From NCBI GenBank assembly GCA_016839765.1, contig JAEOTP010000065.1, forward strand, positions 1-26,179: DNA of 26,179 nucleotides, in the 5' to 3' direction. Shown in pieces: positions 3-21,940 of this stretch. Below the pieces are notes generated by a model that worked only from the letters and a program-made list of their open reading frames with translations, was not told the DNA's origin and made no database searches. The translations under genes and the position numbers were made by a program. The stretch's first letter is position 1; every line of letters starts with the position of its first letter. Source of the stretch: Promethearchaeota archaeon. GTDB taxonomy: Archaea; Asgardarchaeota; Lokiarchaeia; Sigyniarchaeales; SOKP01.

Positions 3-1001
3 AAAAAATATAATGAGATGTATGATTTAGGAATCGAAAGTGGGATTCCTAGCGATTTTTGTTACGGAATTAAAAGTTTGTATGGTATGCATACGAGCAA
101 AATTAAGAATGTAGAAGCTACATTAAATTTCACAATCCGCTGCAGTGCGTGGAATAAATATTTAGAGTCGTTAAAAACTATTGAAAATACATCTCAACAA
201 ATCTGGGTTGATATACCACCAAGAAATATAGGGAATGCGTTAGAAATCTTAACAGAGAATCTCTCAAAAGCTACGGAAAAACTTGAATCAATTACTGGTA
301 AAAGTGTTTCAGATAATGATATAAGAACTCATTTTCAAATTGGAAATCAGGTAAAAAAATCTTATAAAACAATATTATATGAAATTAGCACTTCAGATTT
401 TTATCCATGCAATCCAGCAACATTCAGCGAAATTTTAGCCCTATTAAGCATAACTTTCCAAGATTACAATTCTGATGCTAAAAGATATGCTGAAAATTTA
501 TCATTTTTAGTAAATGAAATGAGAGAAAGGATTAGAAAAGGTATAGGTATGGATGTATCGAAAAGACCAAAAATCTTAGTTACTCCTATGTTTGGCGGGT
601 GGGAGCCAACCATTCATGAGATAGTTTTTGAGGGAGGAGGAAGAGCGATATATGCGGACTGGGATATTCTATATCTTCTAGAGGAAATTAATGTATCAAG
701 TAATTCAAATCCCCTTGAAGAATACGCTCGATTTCTGTTAAAAGCAACTGAACATGGTATTGGATGTGATAATAATACTTTAACTAACTCTTATATGAGA
801 ATAGCAAAAAAATTAGATGCTGATGGTCTTGTTTTTATTCAATTATTTGGTTGTCATTCTGTTTCAAATTGTTATGCCATGCTAAAAGAAAAAATACGAC
901 GAGAACTTGAAATTCCTTCCATTGCTTTGACTTTCAATAAGATCGGTGAAAATATCGAGCAGGTTAAAACTCGTTTAGGAGCATTTATGGAGATGTTTTA
1001 A
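3..1001 (+). CDS. 2-hydroxyacyl-CoA dehydratase subunit family (HgdA/B, FldB/C, BcrB/C-like) Fe-S protein, 5'-truncated by window edge
   Basis: Family Cys pattern: GIPSDFCYG, IRCSAW, QLFGCHS; C-terminal 'EQVKTRLGAFMEM' matches the family's typical 'Q..TR..AF.E' end. The frame is open from base 3 (KKYNE-M) and matches paralog residues DKYNKM, so ATG 18 is internal and the true start lies upstream of the window. Confidence 0.85.
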   Translation, partial: KKYNEMYDLGIESGIPSDFCYGIKSLYGMHTSKIKNVEATLNFTIRCSAWNKYLESLKTIENTSQQIWVDIPPRNIGNALEILTENLSKATEKLESITGKSVSDNDIRTHFQIGNQVKKSYKTILYEISTSDFYPCNPATFSEILALLSITFQDYNSDAKRYAENLSFLVNEMRERIRKGIGMDVSKRPKILVTPMFGGWEPTIHEIVFEGGGRAIYADWDILYLLEEINVSSNSNPLEEYARFLLKATEHGIGCDNNTLTNSYMRIAKKLDADGLVFIQLFGCHSVSNCYAMLKEKIRRELEIPSIALTFNKIGENIEQVKTRLGAFMEMF

Positions 1002-1036: not shown

Positions 1037-2143
1037 TTATACATTAATTGCTAATTTTTGCCGTGATTCCACATCAAGGAATTTCTCTTCAGCTATGCGG
1101 TTTTTGATATATTTTTTCAGGTTTAGTTTCTCGATAGTTCGTCCTTCTTTCCAGAAGTTAATACAACATAAAATTGACGATAAATTAATTACAGAATCTA
1201 TAATTGGTGTTCTAATTCCTAAAAATTTAGCTAATGATGATATTGGAACTAATCCAGTTGGTACATCTTCAGTAAAGTAGCGTGTAACCAATGTTTTTGG
1301 TGCCTTAATATTATCATAAGCTTGAACATTCTGAATTGCTTCGTAAATACTATTTGAATCTACATTATAGCATTGTTTTACCCAGTCACAATATCTAAAT
1401 TGTTTTAATGCTAACTTAGCAAAAATGTCATTTAATTCCACCTCAATAGCTTCAAGAACTGCACAGGAACGTTGGGTTACACCTTCTTTATAAAATTTAA
1501 ATTCTTTCCCGTAATCCATAGCGCTTGCATTCATCAAAGAAAGTGTTGGATGAAGTAGCATTCCTATATTGTTTAATGTTACCTCTAAATAATTATTTTT
1601 TGGATTTAATTGGGGAAATACATCTTTTAAAGTATCGTAGATAAAAAAGTTATGTTTTTCTGGAAAAGCACAAAATTCAATAGAATCCTTGATTTTCAAG
1701 ATCCTTACTCCATTTTTCTTCAATTGTCTTGAAGTAAAAAGTAGAGTCTGAGTCTCAGCAATAAACAATGGCATATTTCCCATTTTTCTTTCAATAGTTC
1801 TTTGGAATTCAACTGCTCCAAAAGTTCTTCCAGGATTTAATATTATAATTTGGTCAGAAGACAAAAATGGAGCAATTTTTTCAGCAATTTCTTTATGAGC
1901 TGAAGCCGGCGTAACTATTAGAATTACATCAGAATCCTTCAAAGAAAATTCAAAATCTTGTGTAACAAAATCAATTGGAAAAAATCCTTTAAGTTCTCCT
2001 TTAGCTTTAATCCCTCCTTTCTTTTTTATATCACTTATCCTTGTAAAAGATCGATTATAAAGATTTACTGAGTATCCTTTTGATGATAAATAAGCTGCAA
2101 ATGCTCTACCTCCACTTCCAGCACCTATTATACAAAACCTCAC
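1037..2143 (-). CDS. NAD(P)-dependent opine (octopine/nopaline) dehydrogenase family protein
   Basis: N-terminal Rossmann IIGAGSGG; 'LNPGRTFGA', 'AETQTL', 'LNNIGMLLHP' (His) and 'RYFTEDVPTGL' (Asp) motifs typical of opine dehydrogenases. GTG start overlaps the upstream TGA (GTGA, 2140-2143). Confidence 0.9.
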   Translation of the reverse strand: MRFCIIGAGSGGRAFAAYLSSKGYSVNLYNRSFTRISDIKKKGGIKAKGELKGFFPIDFVTQDFEFSLKDSDVILIVTPASAHKEIAEKIAPFLSSDQIIILNPGRTFGAVEFQRTIERKMGNMPLFIAETQTLLFTSRQLKKNGVRILKIKDSIEFCAFPEKHNFFIYDTLKDVFPQLNPKNNYLEVTLNNIGMLLHPTLSLMNASAMDYGKEFKFYKEGVTQRSCAVLEAIEVELNDIFAKLALKQFRYCDWVKQCYNVDSNSIYEAIQNVQAYDNIKAPKTLVTRYFTEDVPTGLVPISSLAKFLGIRTPIIDSVINLSSILCCINFWKEGRTIEKLNLKKYIKNRIAEEKFLDVESRQKLAINV

Positions 2144-3894
2144 TCATGCATCACCTTTGGAATAGATTTCTTAGATTGAATTCTTAAAGCTGTTGATGAT
2201 AATTCAGGAACTTTTGAAAAAATATCTTTTATTCTTTCTATTTCATCGTATTTTTTCTGACGAATATCATCCCATGAATAACAAGCTCCGTCAATTATTT
2301 TTGTTTTTATTCTACCTCTTGCGAACTTGTTGTTTTTGAAATGAGCTGCGTCAAATATGCTATATTTTACAAGTCTATTTAAAACTTTATAATTTATGTA
2401 TGGATTTTTTCGTTCATCTTTAGTCTTTACTAATTTGGGGATGATATCAATAATCCATTTTGCTTGTTCAATTAATTCATTTTTTCTTTTCTGAATAGCT
2501 TTATTAATAAAATTGATTTTACTAGAATAAGTACGACTTATAACCTGATCTACAATTTTACAACTTTCAATTACGTCTTCAGGGCGAGCAGCATGACTAG
2601 CTTCAGAATAACTTACTACATGAACAATATCGGGTTTGATGGTTAACTGAACCATTGTTGCTGCCGCAAGCTGACCTTTTGCTCTATCTAAATCTAAAGG
2701 GAGACTGGCTAATCCTGTTCGAACTTGGCGAATCAGTTTAAAACTCCCATCTGTTAAAGTTTGAAGTAATTCATCTTTAGCCAAAATTTTAGCTAAATCC
2801 ATGTCAAAACTACTTGAAGGAGGGGTATTAAACATATATTGTGCAATAAAATGTTTAACACCTAATTTTTTGGCAATTATCCCACATAAATACATATCTG
2901 CTACAGCTATGGCGTCAGGCGCATCTCTAAGACTCCATTGATGGGGATCATTAATCTCTACAGGAATATTGTTTTTACCATGCCATTTTATTGCTTTTAA
3001 ATGTTGCTTTATAGATTCCTTTAAAGATAAAGGACCTCTACCATCCATTTGGTTAAACCAAAATAGAGGAATAGCTGCCCATGCATTTTGAATTGTTTCT
3101 TGATATAATTTTCCTAATTTTATAAAATCGCGTGTCCCAGCATAAATCCTTAACATCGGGAAATTACCAGTTAATTTGGCTTGGTGTAATTTAATAAAGT
3201 CTTCTCGAGACCTTAAAGGTACACCTCCAGCTCCAGATAATTCTTTCACTTGATCTTCAGGATGGAAATAATTTGCTTGTGTATTTTGATCTGGTGCGAT
3301 TGATATAACATCTAGGATTTTAGCATTAGCAATTCTCTTTATTCCATTAAGAGTTTTCTTATAGTCTGATAATCCAAAATGAGCTCTAATGATAGGATAG
3401 GGCTTCTTCCATTGTATACGCGAGATTAAATCCATTGGAATATCTGATTTGGTATCAAATGTTTGTTCCTGATTTCTTAGAATCGATATTAAATCAAATT
3501 TAGATTCCCCGCCTATAAAAAACGCGTCAAATTGTTTATATCTTTTGGCAATCTTAACAACTTCTGGAGTTCCTGCAAAAAATAATCTTTCAGGTTTTTC
3601 TTTCAATTCTTTATATTTTTTAAAAAATTGTTTAAGTACAGGTTGGACTGTTTTAGGAGTTAAGCGATAACTCAGTCCAACTATGTGTGGATGATGGATT
3701 TTAATTTGACTAATAACATCTAAGATAGGGGTTGCAGGTCCTAGAAAAAAACATTTATAACCTAATTGTTTTGAAATTTGCATAAAATTATAAACACCTG
3801 CTACATGAACACATTGACCTATACAAGCCGTTAAAATCCATTTTTCATGTTTATTCTCTATGTTGTTTTGATTTTTCTTTATCAATTTATTCAC
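2140..3894 (-). CDS. Cobalamin-binding protein: N-terminal B12 Rossmann domain fused to a glutamate-mutase-E-like TIM barrel (putative AdoCbl-dependent mutase, substrate unknown)
   Basis: Residues ~18-140: C-V-H-V-A-G (DxHxxG variant), 'LG' and 'VGLSYRL' motifs of base-off/His-on B12 domains. Residues ~167-455 follow GlmE motif order by recall (see findings). GTG start at 3894; a TTG three codons downstream, after a GGAGTGA SD-like element, is an alternative start. Confidence 0.8.
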   Translation of the reverse strand: MNKLIKKNQNNIENKHEKWILTACIGQCVHVAGVYNFMQISKQLGYKCFFLGPATPILDVISQIKIHHPHIVGLSYRLTPKTVQPVLKQFFKKYKELKEKPERLFFAGTPEVVKIAKRYKQFDAFFIGGESKFDLISILRNQEQTFDTKSDIPMDLISRIQWKKPYPIIRAHFGLSDYKKTLNGIKRIANAKILDVISIAPDQNTQANYFHPEDQVKELSGAGGVPLRSREDFIKLHQAKLTGNFPMLRIYAGTRDFIKLGKLYQETIQNAWAAIPLFWFNQMDGRGPLSLKESIKQHLKAIKWHGKNNIPVEINDPHQWSLRDAPDAIAVADMYLCGIIAKKLGVKHFIAQYMFNTPPSSSFDMDLAKILAKDELLQTLTDGSFKLIRQVRTGLASLPLDLDRAKGQLAAATMVQLTIKPDIVHVVSYSEASHAARPEDVIESCKIVDQVISRTYSSKINFINKAIQKRKNELIEQAKWIIDIIPKLVKTKDERKNPYINYKVLNRLVKYSIFDAAHFKNNKFARGRIKTKIIDGACYSWDDIRQKKYDEIERIKDIFSKVPELSSTALRIQSKKSIPKVMHE

Positions 3895-4359
3895 TCCCTA
3901 GAAATGTAAATATATTCCTATAAACCATTTATTACAAACATAAATTATTGATTTTCAATCGGTTTATAGAATTAACCGCAGCGATTTATTATAATCACTT
4001 TAATTATATCAGACGTATATTTTTGATCTTTTGAATATTTATTTTGATATAATTTTGAATTTCTAAAGTCCATTGTAAGGATATATTCTATTTCATATAC
4101 ATCAAATAAAATATATAAATTTTAGTATATTTTTATTAAAAATGGGAAGCATCTGGTAATTTTTCAAATATATTTATAAATAAATTTAAAGATTTTTATT
4201 AAAAAATCTTCTATTTAATTAAAATAAAATAAAACTAAAATTTTTAAAGTTCATAAATAAAAAGCTCTCATAAATTTTATTATAAAATCATGATTACTTT
4301 TAAATTATAATTAATTAAAAGTCGACAGTTTTTATTAAATCTAAGGAGTACCACCAAAA
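3895..4359. promoter_or_regulatory. Divergent promoter region between the B12 mutase/opine dehydrogenase operon and the dehydratase paralog
   Basis: 465-bp extremely AT-rich non-coding gap between divergent starts, with several TATA-like boxes (e.g. TTTATAAA); AAGGAG at 4343-4348 upstream of ATG 4360. Exact promoter positions cannot be assigned. Confidence 0.55.
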
Positions 4360-6511: not shown

Positions 6512-7996
6512 ATGTCAAAACAAAAATTAAAATGGCCTAAACATCCCAGAATTATTGAAATAAACACTTGGCCATGGTTGCACTCTTTATCTGAAATTCA
6601 TGGACATAAAATTGATTTAAGTAATATCCCTGTCCAGTTAATTGATCAAGAGTTGAAGTTTTTTGATGCTGTTTGGTTAATGGGTGTATGGGAAAGAAGT
6701 CCTAGAGGAAGAGATATTGCACTTCAACATGAAGGCTTACAGAAAGAATACCATAAAGCTCTAGATTATTATAATACTGATGATGTTATTGGTTCTCCAT
6801 ATTCGATATATTATTATCATGTAAATTCTTATCTGGGAGGTCCTGAAGCATTAGCTTCTTTTCGTAGGGAATTAAATGAACGCGATTTATTATTGATTTT
6901 GGATTATGTCCCTAATCATGTTGCTGTTGATCATTTGTGGACATTAGAAAAGTCAGATGTTTTTATTAAAGGAACGCTGGATGATTTAATGAGTAAACCA
7001 TTTGAATTTTTCTCGGTGGGTAAGGATGTTTATGCACATGGCCGAGATCCTAATTTCCCCCCTTGGACAGATACAGTTCAAATCAATGCATTCTCCTCTG
7101 AAGCTCGACAAAAAGCGATCAACACTACACTTACTATTGCGAGACAGTGTGATGGTATTCGCTGTGATATGGCAATGTTAATGACAAATAATGTATTTAG
7201 TAAAACCTGGGGAGAAAAAGCAGGGATACAACCAAAAAATGAATTTTGGGAAGATATAATACCTAAAGTTAAAGAAGAATATCCAGAATTCAAATTTTTG
7301 GCAGAAGTATACTGGAATTTGGAGTGGGAGCTTCAACAACAGGGATTTGACTATTGTTATGATAAAAAACTATATGAACGCTTAGCTAATGAGAGTGCTC
7401 AAACAGTGAGGGAGCATCTTCAAGCAGATTGGAATTATCAGAGGAAATTATTACGCTATATAGAGAATCATGATGAGCAGCGAGCTGTAGCTGTTTTCGG
7501 AGAAGAAGCTTCTATGGCAGCAGCCTTGATTACATTGACTTTACCGGGAGCAAGGTTAGTTTTTGAAGGTCAAACCCATGGGCTTGAGAAAAAATTACCA
7601 GTTCAATTAGGAAGGTATCCTACAGAACCAGATAACATTAAAATTATGGAATTTTATGATAAGTTATTAAAATTTATTCCAGGTAAGGAATTTGAGAATG
7701 CAAATTGGTCATTATGCAATGTAAATCCAGTTGATGATAATTCTTTTAATAATATTATAGCATATCAATGGTGGACAGACAAAGAGAGATTATTAATTGT
7801 TGTCAACTATAGTATACGTCATTCTAAGGCTCACATTATTTTAAAAGAACTGGATTTTGGAACTTCTAATTGGAGTTTTATTGATTTATTTAACCAAAAG
7901 GAGTATTCTTATAACAGTCAGGACCTCAAGGAAAATGGATTATATACAGAATTAGAAGCGTGGAAAGGGCATATTTTTCAAATTAAAAAGTTATAA
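6512..7996 (+). CDS. Glycoside hydrolase family 13 (alpha-amylase-like), cytoplasmic
   Basis: GH13 conserved regions: LDYVPNH (I), GIRCDMA (nucleophile Asp), LAEVYW (acid/base Glu), YIENHDE (Asp); no signal peptide. Confidence 0.93.
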   Translation: MSKQKLKWPKHPRIIEINTWPWLHSLSEIHGHKIDLSNIPVQLIDQELKFFDAVWLMGVWERSPRGRDIALQHEGLQKEYHKALDYYNTDDVIGSPYSIYYYHVNSYLGGPEALASFRRELNERDLLLILDYVPNHVAVDHLWTLEKSDVFIKGTLDDLMSKPFEFFSVGKDVYAHGRDPNFPPWTDTVQINAFSSEARQKAINTTLTIARQCDGIRCDMAMLMTNNVFSKTWGEKAGIQPKNEFWEDIIPKVKEEYPEFKFLAEVYWNLEWELQQQGFDYCYDKKLYERLANESAQTVREHLQADWNYQRKLLRYIENHDEQRAVAVFGEEASMAAALITLTLPGARLVFEGQTHGLEKKLPVQLGRYPTEPDNIKIMEFYDKLLKFIPGKEFENANWSLCNVNPVDDNSFNNIIAYQWWTDKERLLIVVNYSIRHSKAHIILKELDFGTSNWSFIDLFNQKEYSYNSQDLKENGLYTELEAWKGHIFQIKKL

Positions 7997-8004
7997 TTTT
8001 TTCT

Positions 8005-9861
8005 CTAATGTACTGTTACTGTTTTTGCTAGGTTTTGAGGTTGGTCAGGATCTAACCCAACATCTACGGAATAGAAATATGCTAATAGTTGAAGTGCTGG
8101 TATAAAAGTAATTGGGCTAAAAAGATTATAATATTTATTTGCAGGTTGATTTATTCGAATTGTTATATCACTTAAATCAGTTATAGTTTTGTCCGATTTT
8201 ACAACTAGAGAAATGATTTTACCTCCTCTTGCTTTAAATTCCATCACATTACCAACTAATCTATCATAAGTTTCGTCAGGAGGAGCTATAAAAATGATGG
8301 GAAAATCTTTTCTTACCAGAGAGATAGGACCATGCTTTGCATGAGCAGCAGAGTATCCTTCTATAAAGCGACATGCAATTTCTTTTAACTTTAAACCACC
8401 TTCTTTAGCGGTAGCTAATGAAATGCCTCGAGCTAAGAAGAAAAAATTATGGGTTTTTTCCAAATTCTTCACAATCTTTTTAAGTATTTCAATGTCATTA
8501 TTTAGGAAATCTTCTATAATATCTGGTGTTGATCTTAAAGCATCATAATATTTTTCGATTTCATTATCAGGTAAAATCTTTCTTAAGTCCGCGATTTCTA
8601 AAGCCACTAGTCCAAGAGTAAGAACTTGGGTACAATAAGTTTTAGTTGCAGCAACTCCAATTTCAGGTCCAGCTTGGGTAAGAATTACATGATCCGAATA
8701 TCTAGTAAGAGTAGAGCCTACTACATTTGTGATGGATAAAACTTTAACTCTATTTTTCAGTTTTTCTTTTGCCCACCTAATTGCTTCAATTAGATCAATA
8801 GTTTCACCAGACTGTGAAATGGCAATTATTACAGAATCTTCTTTTAAAGCATCACCTAATTGAATCTGAAATTCAGAGCATTCAATTGCTTCAATATATT
8901 TATCTAGAAATTTGGTAATAATAAATTTTCCAGCTAATGATGCATAAAATGAAGTACCTGCCGCAGTAATATAAATGTTTTTAGCACTCCATAGTATTTT
9001 AGCAAAAGTTTTTAAAATATCTTTAGAAATTTTCAAAGTTCTTCTCAAAGCACTAGGTTCCTCATATATCTCTTTCAGCATGAAATGCTCATATCCTCCT
9101 TTCTCAGCAGCATCAATGTTCCATTCAATTTTTTGTATCGCTTTCTTTTTTGGTACATTGCTATCTTTAACATCAAAAAATTCCACAGAGCCAGGTTTTA
9201 GAACAGCCATTTCATCATCATCTAATAAATAGCAGGTTCGTGTATAGGGTAAAAAGGCAGGAATATCTGAAGCACAGTAAGATGTATTGCCCTCTTCTAT
9301 TCCAACTACTATTGGTGACTCTTTTCTGACAGCAATAATAGTATTCGGATAATCTGCGTGACAAATAGCAACCCCATAAGCCCCTTCACACCTTTGTATT
9401 GCTTTAGCTACTGCATTTTTGAAATCTAAATCGTTTTCCATATAATCTTCAATTAAATGAGGAATTATTTCTGTATCTGTCTCAGAAATAAAATTATGGC
9501 CTTTTGATTGTAACTCTTCTTTTAGTTCAATAAAATTTTCTAAAATTCCATTATGAACAACAGCAATTTTGTTATGGCAATCTACATGGGGATGACTATT
9601 AAGTTTTGTAGGTGCACCATGAGTAGCCCATCTAGTATGCGCTAAAGCTAATTTGGCCCCATTTGGAAACTCATCTAGTTTAATTTTTTTATGGATCTCA
9701 TCAATTTTACCAGCATCCTTTTTAATATATAATTTTGAGCTATATTGTGTTACAATTCCACAAGAATCATAACCGCGGTATTCTAAACGTTTAATTCCTT
9801 CAAGTGCTATTTTTCCAACTGAAATCTCTTGATTAGTAATGATCCCAAATATACCACACAC
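8005..9861 (-). CDS. glmS: Glutamine--fructose-6-phosphate aminotransferase (isomerizing)
   Basis: MCGIFG N-terminal nucleophile Cys, LEYRGYDS, HTRWATHG, VVHNG, SETDTE, SQSGET, VAATK, LKLKE, KHGP, NLAKTVT; GTG start. Confidence 0.97.
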   Translation of the reverse strand: MCGIFGIITNQEISVGKIALEGIKRLEYRGYDSCGIVTQYSSKLYIKKDAGKIDEIHKKIKLDEFPNGAKLALAHTRWATHGAPTKLNSHPHVDCHNKIAVVHNGILENFIELKEELQSKGHNFISETDTEIIPHLIEDYMENDLDFKNAVAKAIQRCEGAYGVAICHADYPNTIIAVRKESPIVVGIEEGNTSYCASDIPAFLPYTRTCYLLDDDEMAVLKPGSVEFFDVKDSNVPKKKAIQKIEWNIDAAEKGGYEHFMLKEIYEEPSALRRTLKISKDILKTFAKILWSAKNIYITAAGTSFYASLAGKFIITKFLDKYIEAIECSEFQIQLGDALKEDSVIIAISQSGETIDLIEAIRWAKEKLKNRVKVLSITNVVGSTLTRYSDHVILTQAGPEIGVAATKTYCTQVLTLGLVALEIADLRKILPDNEIEKYYDALRSTPDIIEDFLNNDIEILKKIVKNLEKTHNFFFLARGISLATAKEGGLKLKEIACRFIEGYSAAHAKHGPISLVRKDFPIIFIAPPDETYDRLVGNVMEFKARGGKIISLVVKSDKTITDLSDITIRINQPANKYYNLFSPITFIPALQLLAYFYSVDVGLDPDQPQNLAKTVTVH

Positions 9862-10093
9862 GTATTTTCTTCTCTTGAGTTTGAATTTGATGATTTATAA
9901 TTAAACTAATTTTAATCAATTAATAATACTTTACTATACTTTTTTGTTTTTGTTTAATTAATGTAAATAAATTAAAAAATAATGCTAAGTATTTTAAGAA
10001 TATCATAGCTAAGTGTAAACTAACTTTTGATAAATAATGGACATCTTAATTAAAAAATTTGTTAGAAATAAATAAAATTTTCAAGATAGTAAA

Positions 10094-11215
10094 GTGATTA
10101 TTTTGAGTGAGAATCAAAGGAATGGAAAGCAGGATAATTTGGGAAAATATACTCAAAAAGAAATCTTCGAAATACCTACTTCACTAAATAAGGCAACTCA
10201 ACAAAAGGATTTAATTAGTGCTATCGCTAAAGATGTAATTAACAGAGAACCTCATCATATTTATTTAATAGGGTCTGGAAGCTCATATCATGCAGGTTTT
10301 GCAATGTCTTATATGTTCAATCGCCTAATAAGGATTCCCACCTTTACTGAACTTTCAATGGAGTTTCAATATTTAATAGAACCAATACTAAGTGAAAATA
10401 ATTGCATAATAGCACTATCTCAAAGTGGAGAAACTAAGGATACGATTAATTCTATCGATCTTGCTAAAAAAGTAGGATGTTTAACGATTGCAATAACAAA
10501 TAATTTAGATTCTAATCTAGCTAAAAAATGCGATTATCATATTGATTTGAAGTGTAAAGAAGAGAAATCTGTATTAGCTACAAAAACTTATGTTTCTGAA
10601 TTAGCAGTATTAGCTATGTTATGCCTTGAGATTGCCAAAGAAAATAAATCTATTTCAAATGAAGAGTATAATAAGATTTGGGTTGAATTAATTCGTATAC
10701 CTGATAGAATTTATTCGGTGCTTCCTCTACTACATGAAAAAATAAAAATATGTGCCGAAAAATTTAAAAATACAAAATTCTGTTTTATTTTGGGAAGCGG
10801 CCCAGAATATGCTACAGCGATGGAAGCAGCTCTTAAATTAAAAGAGGGGGCTAGAATCTTTGGTCAGGCATACTCAACAGCGGAATTTCCACATGGCCCT
10901 ATTACATTAGCAGATTCAAATACATGTATTTTAGCAATAATACCTTATGAAGATGATAAAAGAAAGATTAAATTATTAGATTTACTCAAACGTATTAAAG
11001 AGAGAGAAGCTACAATTTTAGGTATTTATGAATCGGTAGAAAAAAAGATTCCTCCCAAACAAATCGATTATGGAATTGAAGTTCCTAATACTTTAAAAGA
11101 TTTACAGCCATTAATTATGATATTAGCTATTCAATTATTAACTTTAGAAATATCAAGGATAAATGGGATAAATTGTGATACTCCTAAATTCCTTTCAAAA
11201 GTTTCAGGGATATAA
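10094..11215 (+). CDS. Stand-alone double-SIS sugar-phosphate isomerase/deaminase (GlmS isomerase-domain-like; possible glucosamine-6-P deaminase or deglycase)
   Basis: GSGSS, SQSGET, VLATK, EAALKLKE, EFPHGP and C-terminal LSKV; no glutaminase domain. The true start is probably TTG at 10103, with AAGTGAT acting as SD. Confidence 0.85.
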   Translation: MIILSENQRNGKQDNLGKYTQKEIFEIPTSLNKATQQKDLISAIAKDVINREPHHIYLIGSGSSYHAGFAMSYMFNRLIRIPTFTELSMEFQYLIEPILSENNCIIALSQSGETKDTINSIDLAKKVGCLTIAITNNLDSNLAKKCDYHIDLKCKEEKSVLATKTYVSELAVLAMLCLEIAKENKSISNEEYNKIWVELIRIPDRIYSVLPLLHEKIKICAEKFKNTKFCFILGSGPEYATAMEAALKLKEGARIFGQAYSTAEFPHGPITLADSNTCILAIIPYEDDKRKIKLLDLLKRIKEREATILGIYESVEKKIPPKQIDYGIEVPNTLKDLQPLIMILAIQLLTLEISRINGINCDTPKFLSKVSGI

Positions 11216-11235
11216 ACAAGATATTAAAAAAAGGC

Positions 11236-12660
11236 TTAAATTAAATCTAATTCTTCCATTTTAGACTGAACTAACTGATTAATCTCTTTAGTTTTTTCAA
11301 AATCTTTGTTGGATTCACCTGAAATTCTTAAATAAGGACTTGTACCCGAACGTCGGATTAAAAACCAGCCTTCATCATAATCAAAACGACATCCATCTAT
11401 AGTATTAATATTTTCTATTTTTTTACCTAAATTATTCAGTGTATTCTTCATCTTTTCAATAATTTTGTTATTAATTTCTTTAGTAAAAGAGATATCTCTC
11501 TTTAGTTTAAATTTCTCCGCGTAATATGGGTAATTAGGGATGTCTGCTAATAGTTCTTTCAAACTTTTTCCATTTTTAACAATCATATGTAATACATTAG
11601 CAATTGTAGCAATAGAGTCCGGACCATAATGAAATTTCGGCCAAATGTAAGTTCCCGAAGTTTCTCCACCAAGAAAACCTCCAAATTCCTTTAAAGCTAA
11701 AGCAACCTTTATATCTCCTACCTCTGTTCTAATAACTTCACATCCTAATGGATTTAATACGTGTTCTATTAGACTTGAGGAATTTACTGGTGTTACTACT
11801 TTCATATCCTTATTAGATAATTTATCTTTGTTATCTAGTATGAAAATTTTAGCCATAAGTGCTAATAATCTAATTGGATCAATGATTTCTCCATTTTCAT
11901 CTAAAAAGATCACTCTATCAGCATCACCATCAAGCGCTATACCTATATCCTCTTGAGGTGAAATTTTTAAAAATTTTGAAATTTGTATTAGATTTTCCTT
12001 ACTTGGTTCGCTTGCTCTTCCCGGAAATCGACCATCCATTTGGGCATTTATAGTAACTATGTTAATATCATATTTACTTAATAAATTGGGAACTATATCA
12101 CATCCAGAACCATTTCCGGGATCGACAATTACATTTAATTTACTTCCATCGAATAAAATTCGATTAGTGATGTCTAATATATGAATATCATTTATATCAT
12201 TAATAGCGGTTATTTTACCCACTTCATCCCATTTTATGTTCCTAAAATCTTTATCATTATAGATGCGTTCTATTTCTTCTTCTTGTTCTGGAGAAAATCC
12301 TACGCCAGAAGGATTCCATAATTTTAAACCTATATATTCAGGAGTATTATGTGATGCTGTTATCATAACTCCAGCATCTGCATTTAAATATCGTAATGAC
12401 ATTGCTAATGTAGGAGTTGTGACAATTCCTAGGGTTTTTACATTAGAACCTGTACTTATTAATCCGGAAATGAGAGCATATTCTACTGGTAAGGCGGAAG
12501 TTCTAATATCTTTACCTATAACAACAGTTCCTCCATTTACATAAGTACTAAGAGCTAAACCTACCTCCAATGCCATTTGTGGAGTAAACATCAAATCAGA
12601 CTCAGAATAACTCTGAAATACGCGCCTTATTCCTGATGTACCAAAAATATTGCTCGTCAT
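11236..12660 (-). CDS. glmM: Alpha-D-phosphohexomutase (phosphoglucosamine mutase or PMM/PGM)
   Basis: FGTSGIR, ITASHN (phospho-Ser), DGDADR (metal loop), GGETSG, IRRSGTSP. GlmM specificity is inferred only from adjacency to glmS. Confidence 0.8.
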   Translation of the reverse strand: MTSNIFGTSGIRRVFQSYSESDLMFTPQMALEVGLALSTYVNGGTVVIGKDIRTSALPVEYALISGLISTGSNVKTLGIVTTPTLAMSLRYLNADAGVMITASHNTPEYIGLKLWNPSGVGFSPEQEEEIERIYNDKDFRNIKWDEVGKITAINDINDIHILDITNRILFDGSKLNVIVDPGNGSGCDIVPNLLSKYDINIVTINAQMDGRFPGRASEPSKENLIQISKFLKISPQEDIGIALDGDADRVIFLDENGEIIDPIRLLALMAKIFILDNKDKLSNKDMKVVTPVNSSSLIEHVLNPLGCEVIRTEVGDIKVALALKEFGGFLGGETSGTYIWPKFHYGPDSIATIANVLHMIVKNGKSLKELLADIPNYPYYAEKFKLKRDISFTKEINNKIIEKMKNTLNNLGKKIENINTIDGCRFDYDEGWFLIRRSGTSPYLRISGESNKDFEKTKEINQLVQSKMEELDLI

Positions 12661-12983
12661 AGATACTTCTTATCAAATTGTTTTGAATTTAAAGAGAAAA
12701 GGTGATTTTAATGGTATTTAAAGAATAAAATATATCATATGTATTAAATTTAATTTAAGAATAATCTTTAAAGAAGGAGTTAAACAATTTAATGGCAATT
12801 AATCCTTTCTATAATGGAATAAACACAGCACAATTAAAAATATTTGATATAAATATCTTAAATGGGAAGATGTTTAATTAATTTTGATAAAAGAAAAATA
12901 TTAATTTTTAGATTTATTTATTATGAATTAATAAGAACATATTTCATGTCGATAATTATATTTTAAAATTACGGTAAAGCTGA

Positions 12984-14462
12984 ATGATTTTCCAAGGGCT
13001 TTTTAACATTTTAAGTTTGTATTTAGATGATATAGATCTTTTTTATAATGCCATTGATACCTATTTCCGAGAAAGAATTAATGATAGCTTTCAAATAACT
13101 TCATTGAATAAAGAGGAATTAGATAATAAAATCGATAAATTAATTGATTTAATTACAGATGAATTCTTACAAATGGGATTTAATCAAAATGAGATAGAAA
13201 ATAAATTCTTAGACCTTGGAATCGAATTGAATAAATGTGATAAATTTGAGCTTAGTTCCCTAGTAGAACTTTATGATTTGATAATTTCACCAATTATATT
13301 CGAAATCTTTCTGGAAAAAATTGTAGATTATTTAGTGGATATATCAATTTCCCCTTTAATCTTAAATTTAAAATCAAAAGGGTTGCTTCCCTTGGAATTC
13401 ATAGTAGAATTGCGAAATTTAAAAGATCTACTGGATGCAAATCCTGAAAATAAAGAAAACCTAAAAAAATATTTACAGATTAGAGAAAAGTTTATCACAA
13501 AATTAAGTCAAAATAAAAGTACAATAGAAAGTTTGGAAGATTTAAATAATCCAAAGGATAAATTACAATTACTCTACCTAATATATCGAATAATTAGTTT
13601 TTTCCATTTAGAAAAAAGGTTCGATTTTTCTCACATAAAAGATTATATTGTGAATAATGTTAATGAGTGGTTAATTACTATTCCGTTAGTTACTTTGAGA
13701 AACCCAGATCTTTATTTTTGTGGATTATTTTTAGCTAAAAGTTTGAATATTAAACTTAATCCCGAAAAAGTAAAAAAATTTTTATTGGATCTTTATGAGG
13801 AAGGTGTTGATGAATTTGAAGCTCCATTAGTAGAAGCTACAGATGGATTATATTACTTTTTAAAATCAACAGAATTCATGAAAATATGGTTAAACGATGA
13901 AAAAGTTAATAGATTAATTGAAACTGATCAAAAATTTTTTGAACCTAATTATTTAAAGGATTTAGAGACATCTCAGTTAGTTGTAATATTAAAAATTTAT
14001 ACTTTACTTAGGAAAATTAAATTAGAACAAAATATAAATGCAATATTGGAAGAATTAGAACAAAGAATAACTCCTGAAGGCATTAAACAGTATCGCGACG
14101 GATTTATATCTTCTGAGGCAACCTACTACACATTATTTTGTAATTACATGAGAAATACATTAGATAAGTTAAAGGAGTATGATTTGTTAAATAGTATAGT
14201 TTCAAGGATTTATAGAAATTTAGAACTCTTAGAATTTTCAGCAGACACCAATTTTGATTTAATATCTGAGCTATTTTATTCATTTGAAAGTTTAAAATTA
14301 TTTAATTGTGTAGAAACGAGACAAATGATAATCCATCTTGCTAAATATTTATTTCCAAAAGAAGTTGTAGAAAAAATATCACTTAATACAGAGATAATTG
14401 AAACTAAAGCAAGATTCCGGCATTTGAAAGTTGATAGAATAACAGGAGAAACTATTTATTAA
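12984..14462 (+). CDS. Hypothetical all-helical protein with C-terminal ~46-aa repeats (possible alpha/alpha toroid)
   Basis: 492-aa ORF, Leu/Ile/Glu/Lys-rich with no clear transmembrane segment; six periodic Tyr/Leu-rich helices in the C-terminal 300 aa. Confidence 0.7.
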   Translation: MIFQGLFNILSLYLDDIDLFYNAIDTYFRERINDSFQITSLNKEELDNKIDKLIDLITDEFLQMGFNQNEIENKFLDLGIELNKCDKFELSSLVELYDLIISPIIFEIFLEKIVDYLVDISISPLILNLKSKGLLPLEFIVELRNLKDLLDANPENKENLKKYLQIREKFITKLSQNKSTIESLEDLNNPKDKLQLLYLIYRIISFFHLEKRFDFSHIKDYIVNNVNEWLITIPLVTLRNPDLYFCGLFLAKSLNIKLNPEKVKKFLLDLYEEGVDEFEAPLVEATDGLYYFLKSTEFMKIWLNDEKVNRLIETDQKFFEPNYLKDLETSQLVVILKIYTLLRKIKLEQNINAILEELEQRITPEGIKQYRDGFISSEATYYTLFCNYMRNTLDKLKEYDLLNSIVSRIYRNLELLEFSADTNFDLISELFYSFESLKLFNCVETRQMIIHLAKYLFPKEVVEKISLNTEIIETKARFRHLKVDRITGETIY

Positions 14463-14481
14463 TCTCTTTTTGATTTTCTTT
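14463..14481 (+). terminator. Putative archaeal oligo-T terminator
   Basis: TCTCTTTTTGATTTTCTTT immediately after stop codon 14462. Confidence 0.4.
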
Positions 14482-14572
14482 AGTATAATAATTAATTTTT
14501 CTTAAACTAAATAAAAATTTTAAATTTACCTAAATCTTTTTACTAAGTTAACTATTATAGATTACTTGATTA

Positions 14573-16054
14573 TTGATGAACCTAGAAAATTTTGAGATTA
14601 TTTATAAAGAAAATAGAATCGAGATTAAAAATAAACAGAAAATGAAAGAGAAATTAATTGAAATTGTTGGCGATGGAAATGTCTCAATTGATAAAATTGA
14701 TCTCTTAGCATATTCAAGAGATTCGACCCTAATTACTTTAAATTGGACAATTCAAGGAAAAATTGCTGGCTTACCAGATTTCGTGGTTTGGCCAGAAAAT
14801 AAAGCTCAAATTTCGGAGATTCTAAGATTAGCCAATAATGAAAAAATTCCTGTTATTCCTTATGGGGAAGGTTCTGGAGTTGTTGGAGGAGCTATACCCA
14901 TCTATGGTGGCATTATAGTTGATATGAAAAAGTTTAATAAGATCCTTGAAATTAATGATAAGGATTTGACTGCAACTGTAGAAACAGGGATTAATGGAAT
15001 GAATTTGGAGAGGTATCTGAATGCTAAAGGTTACACTTCTGGTCATATTCCTCAATCACTTTACATCTCCTCATTAGGGGGCTGGATTGCACATAGAGCT
15101 GCTGGCCAATTTAGTACTAAATACGGGAAGATTGAGGATATGGTATTAGGAATGGAAGTAGTTCTACCTCAAGGAAATATAATCGATTTTAAACCAATTA
15201 TACGAGCTTCAACAGGACCTCAACTTAATAAATTATTCATTGGAGCTGAAGGGACTTTAGGAATAGTGACTAAAGCCACTTTAAAAATTTGGCCTTTTCC
15301 TGAAAAAAGAGCGCTAATTTCTTATGCCTTTCCTATAATTGAAGATTCTTTTAATGCTACAAGAGAAATTATGAGGGAACATATCTTTCCTGCTGTAATA
15401 AGAATTTATGATCAATTTGAAACGGAACGACATTTTGTAGATATTGAGCAAGCTAAAGATAAAGTTATGGTTGTATTTGTATGTGAAGGAAATAAAAAAT
15501 TAGTTGAGCTTGAAGAAACTATAACCAAGGAAAAATGTGAAAATAATAAGGGTATTAATTGTGGGGAACATCCTGTAGAACACTGGTTCGAAACTAGATT
15601 TAGAGTTACAGAAACTTCCACAATGCCGCCATATAAAATTGTATTTGATACTTTAGAGATAGCTTCATCGTGGGATAATGCTGCAAAAATTTATCATAGT
15701 GTTATCGATTCTGTAAATAGTTTAAAGGGCATTTTAATAATTTCAGCTCATGTATCGCATTTCTATCCAAATGGGGTAGGAATTTATTTTACTCTTGGAG
15801 GGGTCCCCCCCAAAGGAAAAACAGAATTTGAATTTTATCAAAAATGTTGGGATACAACAATAAGAGGTGTTTTAGATGCAGGTGGTTCCATAGCTCATCA
15901 TCATGGCATTGGTATCAATAGATCGCATTGGATGGAAGAAGAGTGGGGTAAATCTATGGATATAATGAGAAATATTAAGAGGTTACTCGATCCCAACAAT
16001 ATTCTTAATCCAGGAAAAGTTTATACACATATTTGGAAGGGGAGTGAATCATAA
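14573..16054 (+). CDS. FAD-linked oxidoreductase, VAO/PCMH family, alkyl-dihydroxyacetone-phosphate synthase (AGPS)/YgcU-like
   Basis: PDFVVWP, PYGEGSGVVGG, GHIPQS...SLGGWIAHRAAGQFSTKYGKIED, GAEGTLGIVT, SHFYPNG, AHHHGIG, LDPNNILNPGK. Start uncertain (TTG 14573, ATG 14576 or ATG 14642). Confidence 0.88.
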   Translation: MMNLENFEIIYKENRIEIKNKQKMKEKLIEIVGDGNVSIDKIDLLAYSRDSTLITLNWTIQGKIAGLPDFVVWPENKAQISEILRLANNEKIPVIPYGEGSGVVGGAIPIYGGIIVDMKKFNKILEINDKDLTATVETGINGMNLERYLNAKGYTSGHIPQSLYISSLGGWIAHRAAGQFSTKYGKIEDMVLGMEVVLPQGNIIDFKPIIRASTGPQLNKLFIGAEGTLGIVTKATLKIWPFPEKRALISYAFPIIEDSFNATREIMREHIFPAVIRIYDQFETERHFVDIEQAKDKVMVVFVCEGNKKLVELEETITKEKCENNKGINCGEHPVEHWFETRFRVTETSTMPPYKIVFDTLEIASSWDNAAKIYHSVIDSVNSLKGILIISAHVSHFYPNGVGIYFTLGGVPPKGKTEFEFYQKCWDTTIRGVLDAGGSIAHHHGIGINRSHWMEEEWGKSMDIMRNIKRLLDPNNILNPGKVYTHIWKGSES

Positions 16055-17329
16055 ATGGGAATATTTGAAACTTTAAAAAAATATAAATGGATGCTCCCCC
16101 TTATTGGCAAAGCAGATAGAGAGACAAAATCGATTCTATTAAAAAATTTTCGCCAAAAAAAGAAGAATTTTTATCCAGAGGGGGAGTATAAAGCAGATAT
16201 CGACAATTTAATTAAATGTATGCTATGCCCAAATATGTGCAGATTTGATTGTGGCACGCTACAAGCTTCAAATACAGAATCTATGAGTCCCGCCTATAAA
16301 GCGAGAATTGGTTATTATCTTTCAATAGGAAAGATTGATCCAACTCAACCAGAGAATAAACAATTCATTGACCTAATGTATAAATGTACCAATGAAGAAA
16401 ATTGTAAAGTTTGGTGTCCATTTGAGTTCTCAGTTGTTTCCTTATTAGAAACTGTGAGAGATGATCTAAATGATAAAGGATTAATGCCAGACTACTGTAA
16501 GGGGCAAATTGAGAAATTAAATAAGACAAAAACCATAGAAGATTATAATATTTTTGAAACTTTTAAAGAGAAAGGAATAGAAAATATTAAAACCGATGGA
16601 AATGATGAAGTTTTTTACTTTATTGGTTGCGAAATGATGAAATTTCCAAATGTGGTAAATGCTAATATTGCACTATTAAAAAAAGCAGGCATTAAATTTT
16701 CTACAAATCTTGAAAAAAGAGTTTGTTGTGGAGCACCTTCACTTACTATACGGGATATGGAAACAAGCAAAAATTTTGCTCAAGAGAATCATGAGTTAAT
16801 TAACAATACTGGAGCAAAAGTTTTAGTATCAGACTGTCCTGGGTGTGTATTAACATTATCAGAAAGATATAAAAATGTAGGAGTTAAAATTGACACAAAA
16901 GTTATTCATATTGTTGATTTTTTTAAAACTCTCATAGAAGAAGGAAAATTAAAGCCAAAAGGAGAATTACCAAAAGATTTGAAGAAAGTCGCAATTCATG
17001 ATCCATGTCTAATGACAAGAAATCTGAAAGATATAACCTCAATCAGAACTGTTCTTAAAGTTATCCCAAATTTAGAAATAATCGAACCTATTTATAATAA
17101 AGAATATACTCATTGTTGTGGTTGGAGCGGTACTGTCCATTGGGCAGATCAAGATCTTGCTATTAAAGAAGCATCAAATAGAATAGATGAATTAAAGGAA
17201 ACAGGCGTAAATCTTTTCATAACGGCATGTCCCCTATGTGAATTAGGATTAGCATATGGTCTTCTAGACAATGAAAAAGAAAAATATAAAATATTAGATA
17301 TATCTGAATTATTACTCAAAGTAATTTAA
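16055..17329 (+). CDS. Fe-S oxidoreductase subunit, GlpC/GlcF/HdrD-like (ferredoxin motifs plus two CCG domains)
   Basis: CMLCPNMCRFDC and CTNEENCKVWCP; FIGC...CCG...DCPGC; HDPC...CCG...ACPLC. ATG directly follows the upstream TAA and is preceded by a GGAGTGA SD. Confidence 0.9.
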   Translation: MGIFETLKKYKWMLPLIGKADRETKSILLKNFRQKKKNFYPEGEYKADIDNLIKCMLCPNMCRFDCGTLQASNTESMSPAYKARIGYYLSIGKIDPTQPENKQFIDLMYKCTNEENCKVWCPFEFSVVSLLETVRDDLNDKGLMPDYCKGQIEKLNKTKTIEDYNIFETFKEKGIENIKTDGNDEVFYFIGCEMMKFPNVVNANIALLKKAGIKFSTNLEKRVCCGAPSLTIRDMETSKNFAQENHELINNTGAKVLVSDCPGCVLTLSERYKNVGVKIDTKVIHIVDFFKTLIEEGKLKPKGELPKDLKKVAIHDPCLMTRNLKDITSIRTVLKVIPNLEIIEPIYNKEYTHCCGWSGTVHWADQDLAIKEASNRIDELKETGVNLFITACPLCELGLAYGLLDNEKEKYKILDISELLLKVI

Positions 17330-17376
17330 TATTTATTTTCAATTATTGTTGTTTTTTATGCATTTAAGGTGATAAA

Positions 17377-18837
17377 ATGAGTGATTATATATGTGTATTT
17401 GATGTAGGAACAACAGGGGCAAGGACAATTATATTCGATCTTGACGGAAATGAGATTGTAAAATCTTATGAACAATATCCTGTTATTAAACAACCGGTTG
17501 GGATATCAGAACAGGATCCCGAAATTTGGTGGACTGCTGTTAGAAATACATGTAATAAAGTGGTAAGAGCAATTAATCCTGATGATATAATAGGGATATC
17601 AGCGACATTTCTCCGAGGTACGGTAACAATGATTGATAAGAATGGTGAAGTGCTTCACCCCGCTTTAACTTGGATGGACGAAAGAGAAGCCCATACAGCA
17701 ATAGAATGGAAAAAGGAAGTTGATCTCAGAAGGTCGATTCCTAAAATACTCTGGGTTAAGAATAACAAACCAGATTTATTCAGTAAAACTGATAAAATTA
17801 TTCACACTGATTCCTATATATATATGAAATTATGTGAAGAATGTGTAACTGACCCATCAATTAGTATTTGGGGAATATTAAATAATAATTCACTTAAATG
17901 GGATGAGGAATTAGCGGAACGATTTGATTTACCCATAGACCTCTGGCCAGAACTGCATCAACCTGGAGAAATTATTGGTGAATTATCCAGTAGTGCTGCG
18001 GACGTTTTAGGTTTAAAGAAAAACATTCCGATTATAGTCGGGGGCGGTGATCAACAATGCTCAGCATTAGGATTAGGAGCTATTAACGTAGGTCAGGTTA
18101 AAGCGACTACTGGGACAGGAACATTTTTAGATTATGTTGTAGATCACCCCATTGAAACCGCAGGAGATTTTCCTATTTTTTCATTACCTTCTGTTTTAGA
18201 GGGTAAGTGGAATATTGAGGGTGTTTATCCAGGATCAGGTGATGCATTAAAATGGTTTGCGAATAATTTCTCACAATTACATCTTAAACAGAGCCAAGAG
18301 CAGGGTAAAAATGTGTATGATATGCTAACTTCAGAAGCAGCAACAATACCCCCTGGAAGTGGAGGATTGTTATTTTTAACGGGATTATCTATCTTCCGAA
18401 AAGGGACTATTCATGGTTTAGATTGGAATCATACTAGAGCACATATAATACGTTCGATAATGGAATCTGCTGCCCTGGGTACTCGATATTATCTCCAAAC
18501 AACAGAAGCAATGGGGCGTGAAAAAACGACTGAATTAAGAGTTGATGGAGGAGGAATGAATAGTGATTTATGGGCTCAAATTTTTGCAGATATAACAGAG
18601 AAAAAAATATTAGTTTCAGAGAATAAAGATGGTGCTGCTATGGGTGCTGCAATTTTGGGATTTATTGGGAGTAAAAGATATGATACTGTTGAAAAAGCAA
18701 TTGAAAATATGGTTAGATTTCCTACATTTAAAAATCCAATTAAAGAAAATTCAAAAATATATAAAAAATTATATAGAATTTTTCTGCCAACACTTCTAGA
18801 AGTTTATTCAAAAAAGCGAGTTACCAAAGATTTATAA
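17377..18837 (+). CDS. FGGY-family carbohydrate kinase (xylulokinase/glycerol kinase-like)
   Basis: FDVGTTG, EQDPE.WW, WMDER, GGGDQQC, TTGTG, DGGG..S.LW.QI.AD, AMGAA; SD AAGGTGAT at 17366-17373. Confidence 0.93.
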   Translation: MSDYICVFDVGTTGARTIIFDLDGNEIVKSYEQYPVIKQPVGISEQDPEIWWTAVRNTCNKVVRAINPDDIIGISATFLRGTVTMIDKNGEVLHPALTWMDEREAHTAIEWKKEVDLRRSIPKILWVKNNKPDLFSKTDKIIHTDSYIYMKLCEECVTDPSISIWGILNNNSLKWDEELAERFDLPIDLWPELHQPGEIIGELSSSAADVLGLKKNIPIIVGGGDQQCSALGLGAINVGQVKATTGTGTFLDYVVDHPIETAGDFPIFSLPSVLEGKWNIEGVYPGSGDALKWFANNFSQLHLKQSQEQGKNVYDMLTSEAATIPPGSGGLLFLTGLSIFRKGTIHGLDWNHTRAHIIRSIMESAALGTRYYLQTTEAMGREKTTELRVDGGGMNSDLWAQIFADITEKKILVSENKDGAAMGAAILGFIGSKRYDTVEKAIENMVRFPTFKNPIKENSKIYKKLYRIFLPTLLEVYSKKRVTKDL

Positions 18838-18860
18838 TTTTTTCTTTTTTTCCACTTTTT
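18838..18860 (+). terminator. Putative archaeal oligo-T terminator ending the flavoprotein/Fe-S/kinase operon
   Basis: TTTTTTCTTTTTTTCCACTTTTT directly after the kinase stop codon. Confidence 0.55.
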
Positions 18861-18965
18861 CATGATTAATACCTGTTAAAATTAGTAATTCTGAAAATTT
18901 AGTAAAGTATTTTTGAAATCTTTTATTTCAAAAATTATTAGCAATACTCAATAAGAATTTCTTGC

Positions 18966-19802
18966 ATGCCTTATTTCATTAATAAAGAGGGTTATAAACT
19001 CTACTATGAAGATATCAATGGTGATACAAAAGAAAGTACAGAGGGTACTATAATTTTACTTCATGGTTTTGCTTCTTCAGCATCTTTTTTTAAAGGTCAA
19101 ATCCAAATTCTTAGAATAAATTATCGAATAATAGCGTTTGATGCTTTAGGGCATGGAAGAAGCGATCATCCTCAAAAAGTGGATCTTTCAAAGAATCTTA
19201 GATATGATATTATTAGAGATCTTGAGGACCTCCTTGAATATTTAAACGTTGACGAGAAATATGGTATAATAGGTCATTCACTTGTAGGTGGAATGATTGC
19301 ACAATTAATCTGTATGAAACATCCCAAAGATATTAAATTCCTTATTTTATTAAATTCTGGGTACATAATGATTGATAATGTAATAAGGAACATCTTTTAC
19401 AATTTGCTTCCTTATTTTATCCGGATGAATTTTTTACAAGTAGTTGCTAATTCTATTGAGCATATTTTAGATAAGATTATTCCCTATATTTTAAGATCCT
19501 TAGCAGAATCAATAAATGGAATGAAATTAACAAAAGATAAATTGTATATGTTAATAGAAGAACAAATCTTTGGAATGATAAATGAAATAAGTGAATATGA
19601 TCCATCAAATATAAAATGTCCAACACTCATTATTGGAGGAAGATTAGATAATTTTGCTCCAGAACAAATGTCAGAAGAATTACATAAAAAAATCCCTAAT
19701 TCCAAGCTTGAAATAATAGATATGGCAGGCCATTTTGCTCCAGCTCAACGTAAGGAAGCAATTAATGAGTTAATATGTGAGTTTATAAAAAATCTAAAGT
19801 GA
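18966..19802 (+). CDS. Alpha/beta-fold hydrolase
   Basis: LLHGF, FDALGHGRS, GHSLVGG (Ser), PTLIIGGRLD (Asp), AGHF (His). Confidence 0.9.
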   Translation: MPYFINKEGYKLYYEDINGDTKESTEGTIILLHGFASSASFFKGQIQILRINYRIIAFDALGHGRSDHPQKVDLSKNLRYDIIRDLEDLLEYLNVDEKYGIIGHSLVGGMIAQLICMKHPKDIKFLILLNSGYIMIDNVIRNIFYNLLPYFIRMNFLQVVANSIEHILDKIIPYILRSLAESINGMKLTKDKLYMLIEEQIFGMINEISEYDPSNIKCPTLIIGGRLDNFAPEQMSEELHKKIPNSKLEIIDMAGHFAPAQRKEAINELICEFIKNLK

Positions 19803-19831
19803 ATAAATCATAATTCTTTTACTCATATTAT

Positions 19832-20212
19832 TTGGTATCTATGATGAATTCGAGTGAAAATGATAAAAATACTTCTATAGCTTTTTTCAAAGAAAAAGTT
19901 AATAATTTTGTTAGGAAACGTAATTGGTCAAATTATCATACGCCAAAAAATTTAATTCAGGCTTTGGGAATTGAAATTGCTGAGTTATCAGAACTGTTTT
20001 TATTTAAAGAATATAGTGTGGATGAGATTCTAAAAAACAAGAGTTTATTTGAAAGTATTTCAGATGAATTAGCAGACATTTTTATATATTTAATTAGTCT
20101 TGTAAATTGTTTAGGAATAGATTTAACTAAATCTTTCAATAATAAAATAGAAAAAAATGAAAGAAAATATCCTATTAAAGAATTTAATGATGGAAAGTAT
20201 TACAAAAAGTAA
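19832..20212 (+). CDS. MazG-like nucleotide pyrophosphohydrolase (dCTP pyrophosphatase 1-like)
   Basis: R.W..YHTPKNL, E.AEL.E.F, DELADI..YL, N..KYP motifs; ATG 19841 or 19844 is the more likely start. Confidence 0.88.
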   Translation: MVSMMNSSENDKNTSIAFFKEKVNNFVRKRNWSNYHTPKNLIQALGIEIAELSELFLFKEYSVDEILKNKSLFESISDELADIFIYLISLVNCLGIDLTKSFNNKIEKNERKYPIKEFNDGKYYKK

Positions 20213-21935: not shown

Positions 21936-21940
21936 AAATA

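Follow-up and report, generated by a model that had tools for sequence, protein, structure and literature searches.

To our knowledge, only about a dozen radical reactions of adenosylcobalamin (AdoCbl) are known. Among the enzymes that perform them, the closest to the one considered here are glutamate mutase (GlmS/GlmE with GlmL, EC 5.4.99.1; PDB 1CB7, 6H9E), which is built from separate S and E chains and has methylaspartate ammonia-lyase as its partner, and the aminomutases that use both pyridoxal 5'-phosphate (PLP) and AdoCbl, namely lysine 5,6-aminomutase (LAM) and ornithine aminomutase (OAM). Its own partner resembles the opine dehydrogenases (ODHs) of the CENDH family, which include the CENDH of Arthrobacter (PDB 1BG6), an enzyme of hydrophobic amino acids and NADH, and the mODHs of Telek et al. 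2024 (PMC10787698), a paper that does not give their gene context or physiological role. Here we describe a pair of genes in a 26,179-nucleotide stretch of a Promethearchaeota archaeon (GenBank assembly GCA_016839765.1, contig JAEOTP010000065.1, positions 1 to 26,179, forward strand; the window). The window is part of a 96%-complete genome, and its closest homologues come from Promethearchaeota (Lokiarchaeia). One gene encodes a single-chain B12 protein that is very probably an AdoCbl mutase, the other an ODH. We propose, with a probability of about one in three, that the pair is biosynthetic: the ODH would make an opine, which the mutase would rearrange to a solute that balances potassium.

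The pairing itself has been reported before. The accessible text of Zhang, Rodionov, Gelfand and Gladyshev 2009 (PMC2667541) describes a B12 family predicted in 11 bacteria, always adjoining an octopine/nopaline dehydrogenase (PF02317) and with Ddl and AsnB near it, and that of Mavromatis et al. 2009 (PMC2626281) describes the operon Hore_09740/09750 in Halothermothrix and other thermophilic anaerobes, giving no function. Like the family of the window pair, the family of Zhang et al. has a distant N-terminal B12 domain, adjacency to PF02317, Ddl and AsnB close by, and members in Clostridia and Chloroflexi; by this description, not by sequence comparison, the two are the same family. A preliminary description of the window had presented the pair as newly noticed, and in this it was anticipated by both papers. 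Archaea, a relation to glutamate mutase, GlmL, the specificity of the ODH and a riboswitch are not mentioned in the accessible text of either. The further statement of the preliminary description, that no characterised pathway combines the two enzymes, agrees with a literature search on opines together with cobalamin, mutases or cyclic di-AMP (c-di-AMP), which returned none and had most subscription papers outside its reach.

The pair occupies the minus strand of the window, with the following features.

2140..3894, minus strand: predicted single-chain AdoCbl mutase, B12-binding domain N-terminal to a GlmE-like (beta/alpha)8 barrel, 584 residues counted from GTG
3475..3840, minus strand: cobalamin-binding Rossmann domain, about residues 19-140 (PF02310, E 1.4e-4; VIA Z 15 to the corrinoid proteins 4jgi and 1y80)
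2224..3447, minus strand: GlmE-like catalytic barrel and C-terminal helices, residues 150-557 (Foldseek, VIA, hhalign)
1037..2143, minus strand: ODH of the CENDH family, predicted acidic-amino-acid and NADPH type, 368 residues
2140..2143, minus strand: GTGA stop/start overlap of 4 nucleotides, the TGA of the mutase over the GTG of the ODH
2150..2156, minus strand: Shine-Dalgarno-like AGGTGAT for the ODH, within the 3' coding end of the mutase, 6 nucleotides 5' of the ODH start
3891..3897, minus strand: Shine-Dalgarno-like GGAGTGA, 5 nucleotides upstream of TTG 3885

The GTGA overlap, to which the preliminary description had drawn attention, is present as described, and 15 of 19 Asgard loci likewise have an overlap of 4 nucleotides, the remaining four having a 1-nucleotide overlap or a gap of 2-4 nucleotides. 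In most Asgard loci a GGTGA or GGAG motif occupies the site equivalent to that of AGGTGAT. Because the overlap recurs and AGGTGAT precedes the ODH start, translational coupling of the two genes can reasonably be inferred. The true start of the mutase is likely TTG 3885, giving 581 residues, since GGAGTGA is suitably spaced from it and the length matches that of a 581-residue database protein (P0001), which aligns to residues 4-584 of the frame.

An AlphaFold2 model of the B12 protein built from a 42-sequence alignment was confident (pLDDT 90, pTM 0.82), and its top Foldseek match was glutamate mutase E (1cb7_B, E 5.5e-17). With VIA the model aligned to GlmE at Z 29.6 (rmsd 3.2, 375 residues aligned), and the other barrels scored 28.2 (LAM), 25.8 (OAM), about 20 (methylmalonyl-CoA mutase, MCM) and about 15 (pterin-binding); rows 1-21 of the VIA list were AdoCbl mutases throughout. 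When the family profile was aligned to canonical GlmE, on a template numbered 1:1 with PDB 6H9E, hhalign returned a probability of 94% (E 1e-7). The Pfam matches lay below their cut-offs, both PF02310 (B12-binding, residues 19-81) and PF06368 (MutE, residues 326-485, 16.8 bits versus 26.6). CobA adenosyltransferase and three MCM large subunits are encoded in the same genome. As in glutamate mutase, the B12 domain is of the His-on type, the counterparts of E330 and D96 are present, an HGT-like motif occurs (here YxGT) and some relatives carry GlmL; the proteins differ in that they are 14-16% identical and the present one is a single chain with CxHxxG (C28, H30, G33; nucleotides 3796-3813, minus strand) in place of DxHxxG. 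H30 and G33 are each conserved in 143 of 148 sequences, whereas position 28 is Cys in 119 and Asp in 24, CxHxxG being typical of the main clade and DxHxxG of a divergent clade of 600-640 residues.

GlmL is fused to the C-terminus of the mutase in three database proteins (P0142, P0144, P0146) and is fused or within the operon in 10 of 40 sampled bacterial loci (NF040745, 600 bits versus a cut-off of 475), which argues for an AdoCbl mutase and not a methionine synthase. These fusions of B12 domain, barrel and GlmL, also seen in loci L119-L121 and L222-L224, are 1,210-1,270 residues long. Methionine synthase is the name that NCBI gives to close homologues, a mislabelling that had been foreseen in the preliminary description, and it would imply a methylcobalamin methyltransferase. 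The best sequence matches of the B12 domain are indeed corrinoid proteins and MetH, but within the Rossmann domain they extend over no more than about 65-100 residues; the barrel comes much closer to AdoCbl mutases than to methyltransferase-type barrels, the catalytic glutamate E431 is retained, and in relatives GlmL is found fused to the mutase or near it. A methyltransferase function is therefore extremely unlikely. MetH itself was rejected, since similarity is confined to the B12 domain, the remainder being a GlmE-like barrel, and the homocysteine-binding, folate-binding and activation domains are missing. PLP aminomutases such as LAM and OAM have a related barrel (Z 25-28) and AdoCbl radical chemistry; in the window protein, by contrast, the B12 domain precedes the barrel and no Lys stands at the PLP position, none being conserved after the B12 motif in the 148-sequence alignment, where positions 41-44 are variable. 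This class, too, was rejected. We conclude that the B12 protein very probably functions in the manner of a class I AdoCbl mutase and is not glutamate mutase, a PLP aminomutase or MetH; the single-chain, glutamate-mutase-like AdoCbl enzyme of the preliminary description is thus supported by the barrel, by E431 and by the association with GlmL.

Active-site positions were mapped by profile alignment at 17% identity to GlmE, the beta-1 and E171-Y181 registers being read manually from motifs, and for GlmE residues other than E330 the roles are those that we take them to have. E330, which promotes Co-C homolysis (PMC4413051), corresponds to E431 (nucleotides 2602-2604), kept in 145 of 148 sequences, and D96 corresponds to D202. 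The residues of the glutamate claw are all exchanged, R66 for H172, R100 for Q206 and R149 for Y251; H150 is replaced by Ser or Ala, Y181 by D284, N123 by Gly and K326 by Val, and the position of E171 is probably Ala (A274). Near-invariant new arginines, R170, R249 and R392, stand at the positions of GlmE Q64, Q147 and H291, and R286, E313 and R323 are likewise conserved; the full set of conserved polar barrel residues comprises these six together with H172, S198, Q206, Y251, D284, N315, Q352 and H425. With every one of the main glutamate-binding residues exchanged, free glutamate is unlikely to be the substrate, and the new arginines would fit a longer, N-substituted polycarboxylate. Glutamate fermentation via methylaspartate was rejected on the loss of the arginine claw and the lack of a link to methylaspartate ammonia-lyase. 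That gene was not found in the window's own genome and was never adjacent in a Bacillota sample (an even draw of 200 genomes plus one centre), and it was not enriched there, occurring in 9 of 41 pair-bearing genomes versus 40 of 201 overall.

The partner protein matches Arthrobacter CENDH (1BG6, E 2e-73) and PF02317 (E 1.5e-41, 142 bits versus a cut-off of 30) and has the Rossmann GxGxxG, the catalytic dyad H198/D293, R288 and W254; fold and His-Asp dyad are common to CENDH and the mODHs. Aligned through 1BG6, it carries R31, R106 and G194 at positions 35, 111 and 198 of ArODH. Arg111 and Gly198 turn ODHs to Asp or Glu with pyruvate, as shown by mutagenesis, and Arg35 marks acceptance of NADPH (Telek et al. 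2024, PMC10787698). The window ODH thus matches the mODHs in all three positions, whereas CENDH has A111/N198, and by this signature it is predicted to be of the type that uses Asp or Glu, pyruvate and NADPH. All 112 mutase-linked ODHs have R106 and G194, and 103 of them have R31; the R/G pair is found in 7 of 20 unlinked ODHs. A 22-residue motif of mODH-48, the only part compared, is closest to mutase-linked bacterial ODHs (17/22), so the tested mODHs probably belong to the linked clade, to whose bacterial members the window ODH is about 33-40% identical.

If the mutase acted first, the AdoCbl enzyme would convert a free amino acid or a related acid to a branched, aspartate-like amino acid such as 3-methylaspartate or its amide, which the NADPH-dependent ODH would trap as an opine. 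The related ODHs favour aspartate (PMC10787698), which 3-methylaspartate resembles; the nearest fold, glutamate mutase, works on a free amino acid; and, because methylaspartate ammonia-lyase is not associated, the ODH could be the sink for 3-methylaspartate. Since the main glutamate-binding residues are all replaced and another free substrate is not evident, however, we consider this order rather unlikely.

The family is large, with more than 6,400 protein clusters and at least 590 relatives in the species-genome collection, where it occurs in Asgard archaea, Chloroflexota, Bacillota and Poribacteria; plasmids and viral contigs gave no matches. It is present in about 20% of the Bacillota sample and in most Lokiarchaeia, among them Promethearchaeum syntrophicum MK-D1, which has been cultured; 36 of 61 genomes of the window's relatives match, all inside the same order. 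The ODH adjoins the mutase in 25 of 30 loci of these relatives, three of the misses being contig ends. Across phyla it is present in 73 of 80 loci, upstream or downstream and co-oriented in all; of the seven misses, four fall at contig edges and three come from genomes that carry an ODH elsewhere. PF02317 lies within 3.2 kb of 42/42 mutase places (41 genomes) in the Bacillota sample, in which 62 genomes have an ODH. The gene-neighbourhood survey suggested in the preliminary description therefore bears out the adjacency, which greatly exceeds what chance would give. Kin do not count as independent cases, but the adjacency holds across domains, both gene orders and divergent clades, and the two enzymes almost certainly act in one pathway. 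Two genomes considered as counter-examples (G073, G077), with weak PF06368 matches and no ODH, were set aside, since the proteins fail the family profile and resemble methylmalonyl-CoA mutases. Divergent GlmE-like proteins in L296-L298 (frames of 408-453 residues, E 1e-59 to 1e-69), which lack the usual N-terminal part, are described here as a further uncharacterised mutase-like group.

So constant a partner could also supply an imine, and the B12 protein could then be a PLP-free aminomutase in which the pyruvate ketimine of the ODH takes the place of the PLP aldimine in a 1,2-amino shift. Examples would be the conversion of alpha- to beta-glutamate, followed by formation of beta-glutamine by an AsnB-like enzyme, or that of a 1-carboxyethyl to a 2-carboxyethyl group. 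The LAM and OAM barrels score near GlmE, yet the PLP Lys is missing, and beta-glutamate and beta-glutamine are known osmolytes. However, a free ketimine is short-lived and channelling would be required; a search for ODH forms fused to the mutase found none, which is weak evidence; and none of the 14 control genomes has PF02317, among them those of Thermotoga maritima and M. jannaschii, which are producers of beta-glutamate. We regard this chemistry as very unlikely. Two Lokiarchaeal ODHs with long C-terminal extensions (L286 and L287, open frames of 508 and 526 residues) lie away from the mutase, and in L067, from genomes with ODHs of this extended type, an AsnB-like gene follows the mutase.

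A c-di-AMP riboswitch was detected by cmscan directly upstream of the operon in 9/11 and 8/20 Bacillota loci, and a profile seeded from these matches found it upstream in 18 of 40 bacterial loci, compared with 1 of 20 control loci of unlinked ODHs. According to the accessible part of PMC8517857, c-di-AMP controls potassium and osmolyte homeostasis. No Li+/Na+ riboswitch was found in the loci scanned, 11 Chloroflexota loci gave no Rfam element at gathering level, and matches in the window were at chance level only, as was a scan for sigma-70 promoters, a model unsuited to archaea. AsnB-like amidotransferases neighbour the pair in 17 of 80 loci and Ddl-like ATP-grasp ligases in 10 of 80, never both in one locus. 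One locus has tandem c-di-AMP riboswitches upstream of the pair (L196, 2481-2870, minus strand). The operons of L218-L221 and L242, downstream of a gene resembling a membrane pyrophosphatase, run in the order c-di-AMP riboswitch, ODH, Ddl-like ligase, hot-dog thioesterase, GlmL, mutase, and in L221 the ODH is present twice, with a group II intron reverse transcriptase upstream. In six other loci the mutase is followed by a thioesterase of a second family, and in P0122 and P0134 the mutase is fused to a GshB/RimK-like ATP-grasp (863 residues) and to a peptidase M15-like domain (732 residues), respectively.

The divergent clade is often located in glycan clusters. Divergent or relocated copies in L122, L123, L226 and L254 lie within surface-glycan clusters (Alg14/GT28, MurJ, DegT, FdtA, WecA, ATP-grasp), a context which suggests that an amino sugar can be acylated with the product of the pair. 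Among the acyl groups known from O-antigens there are opines (PMC10609480).

These surroundings help to judge the opposite direction, in which an imported acidic opine or N-substituted amino acid would be isomerised and then cleaved oxidatively by the ODH to pyruvate and an amino acid, pyruvate possibly being a recyclable N-handle. The hosts are anaerobic and many ferment peptides, ODHs are reversible, peptide (dipeptide) ABC transporters, peptidase C26 or C45 and AAT-family amidase accompany the GlmL-fused copies, and a DASS/CitMHS transporter lies within the operon in L071 and L075. Against such a catabolic or carrier cycle stand the NADPH motif of the great majority of linked ODHs, the recurrence of ATP-consuming amide ligases as neighbours, c-di-AMP control, the location in glycan biosynthesis clusters and the lack of a transporter in most loci. 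We therefore hold it to be doubtful in general; it may apply to the GlmL-fused clade only, because the ODHs there have Pro in place of the NADPH Arg, and this group is possibly a catabolic sub-clade. The preliminary description had offered three options, of which a mutase acting first and an opine as mutase substrate remain, while the breakdown of environmental opines has lost ground on account of the NADPH signature, the riboswitch and the amide-ligase neighbours.

We thus favour synthesis, which is the probable direction, with the opine, on balance, as the substrate of the mutase. In this pathway the ODH would use NADPH to join pyruvate to an acidic L-amino acid, yielding an N-(1-carboxyethyl) tricarboxylic opine of Glu or Asp, and the AdoCbl radical mutase would rearrange its skeleton in the manner of glutamate mutase to a branched tricarboxylate. 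The most specific guess, itself improbable in this exact form, is the conversion of N-(1-carboxyethyl)-glutamate to N-(1-carboxyethyl)-3-methylaspartate, in which the Glu-opine would fragment to acrylate and an N-alkyl-glycyl radical. The product would serve as an anionic solute in potassium and osmotic balance, and in some lineages it may be amidated or ligated by the AsnB-like and ATP-grasp enzymes.

Several observations weigh against this pathway. No c-di-AMP riboswitch was found in the window's genome or in 18 Asgard loci (L031-L048), and cell-envelope genes are also under c-di-AMP riboswitches. Neither this 96%-complete genome nor that of MK-D1 yielded GlmL, and the surroundings of the GlmL-fused copies look catabolic. 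In the window protein Cys stands where DxHxxG has Asp, and the mapping of the active site, at 17% identity, is uncertain around E171. Finally, characterised ODHs of the acidic type favour Asp over Glu (PMC10787698), and an Asp-opine cannot undergo glutamate-mutase chemistry.

The pair is flanked in the window by two paralogues of the HGD-D family, 61% identical to each other.

18-1001, plus strand: HGD-D-family paralogue (2-hydroxyacyl-CoA dehydratase or double-cubane-like), cut by the contig start
4360-5712, plus strand: second HGD-D-family paralogue, on the other flank of the pair

We treated these flanks as local synteny only, because their proximity to the pair is kept only in close Lokiarchaeal kin. 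The remainder of the window (6512-26054), judged by translation alone, encodes an alpha-amylase, glmS, a SIS-domain protein, a phosphohexomutase and a HAD hydrolase, as well as an operon of an FAD oxidase, an Fe-S oxidoreductase and a carbohydrate kinase, and purC-purS-purQ-purL.

The family of the B12 mutase and the ODH has been a functional orphan since 2009, its mutases often bearing the NCBI label already mentioned. The fold assignment, the link to GlmL, the signature of the ODH and the riboswitch narrow it to a short list of substrates that can be assayed, and cultured hosts for such assays exist, for example Caldanaerobacter subterraneus. We tentatively suggest, as a bolder proposal than the pathway itself, a new class of AdoCbl radical enzyme that rearranges an acidic amino acid by means of a pyruvate-derived N-carboxyethyl (opine or ketimine) handle, not CoA or PLP, and gives an undescribed compatible solute common to Asgard archaea, Chloroflexota and Bacillota. 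A positive outcome of the assays would add a new reaction of B12 and probably a new solute of anaerobes, and it would correct those metabolic reconstructions of Asgard archaea that count the mutase genes as MetH.

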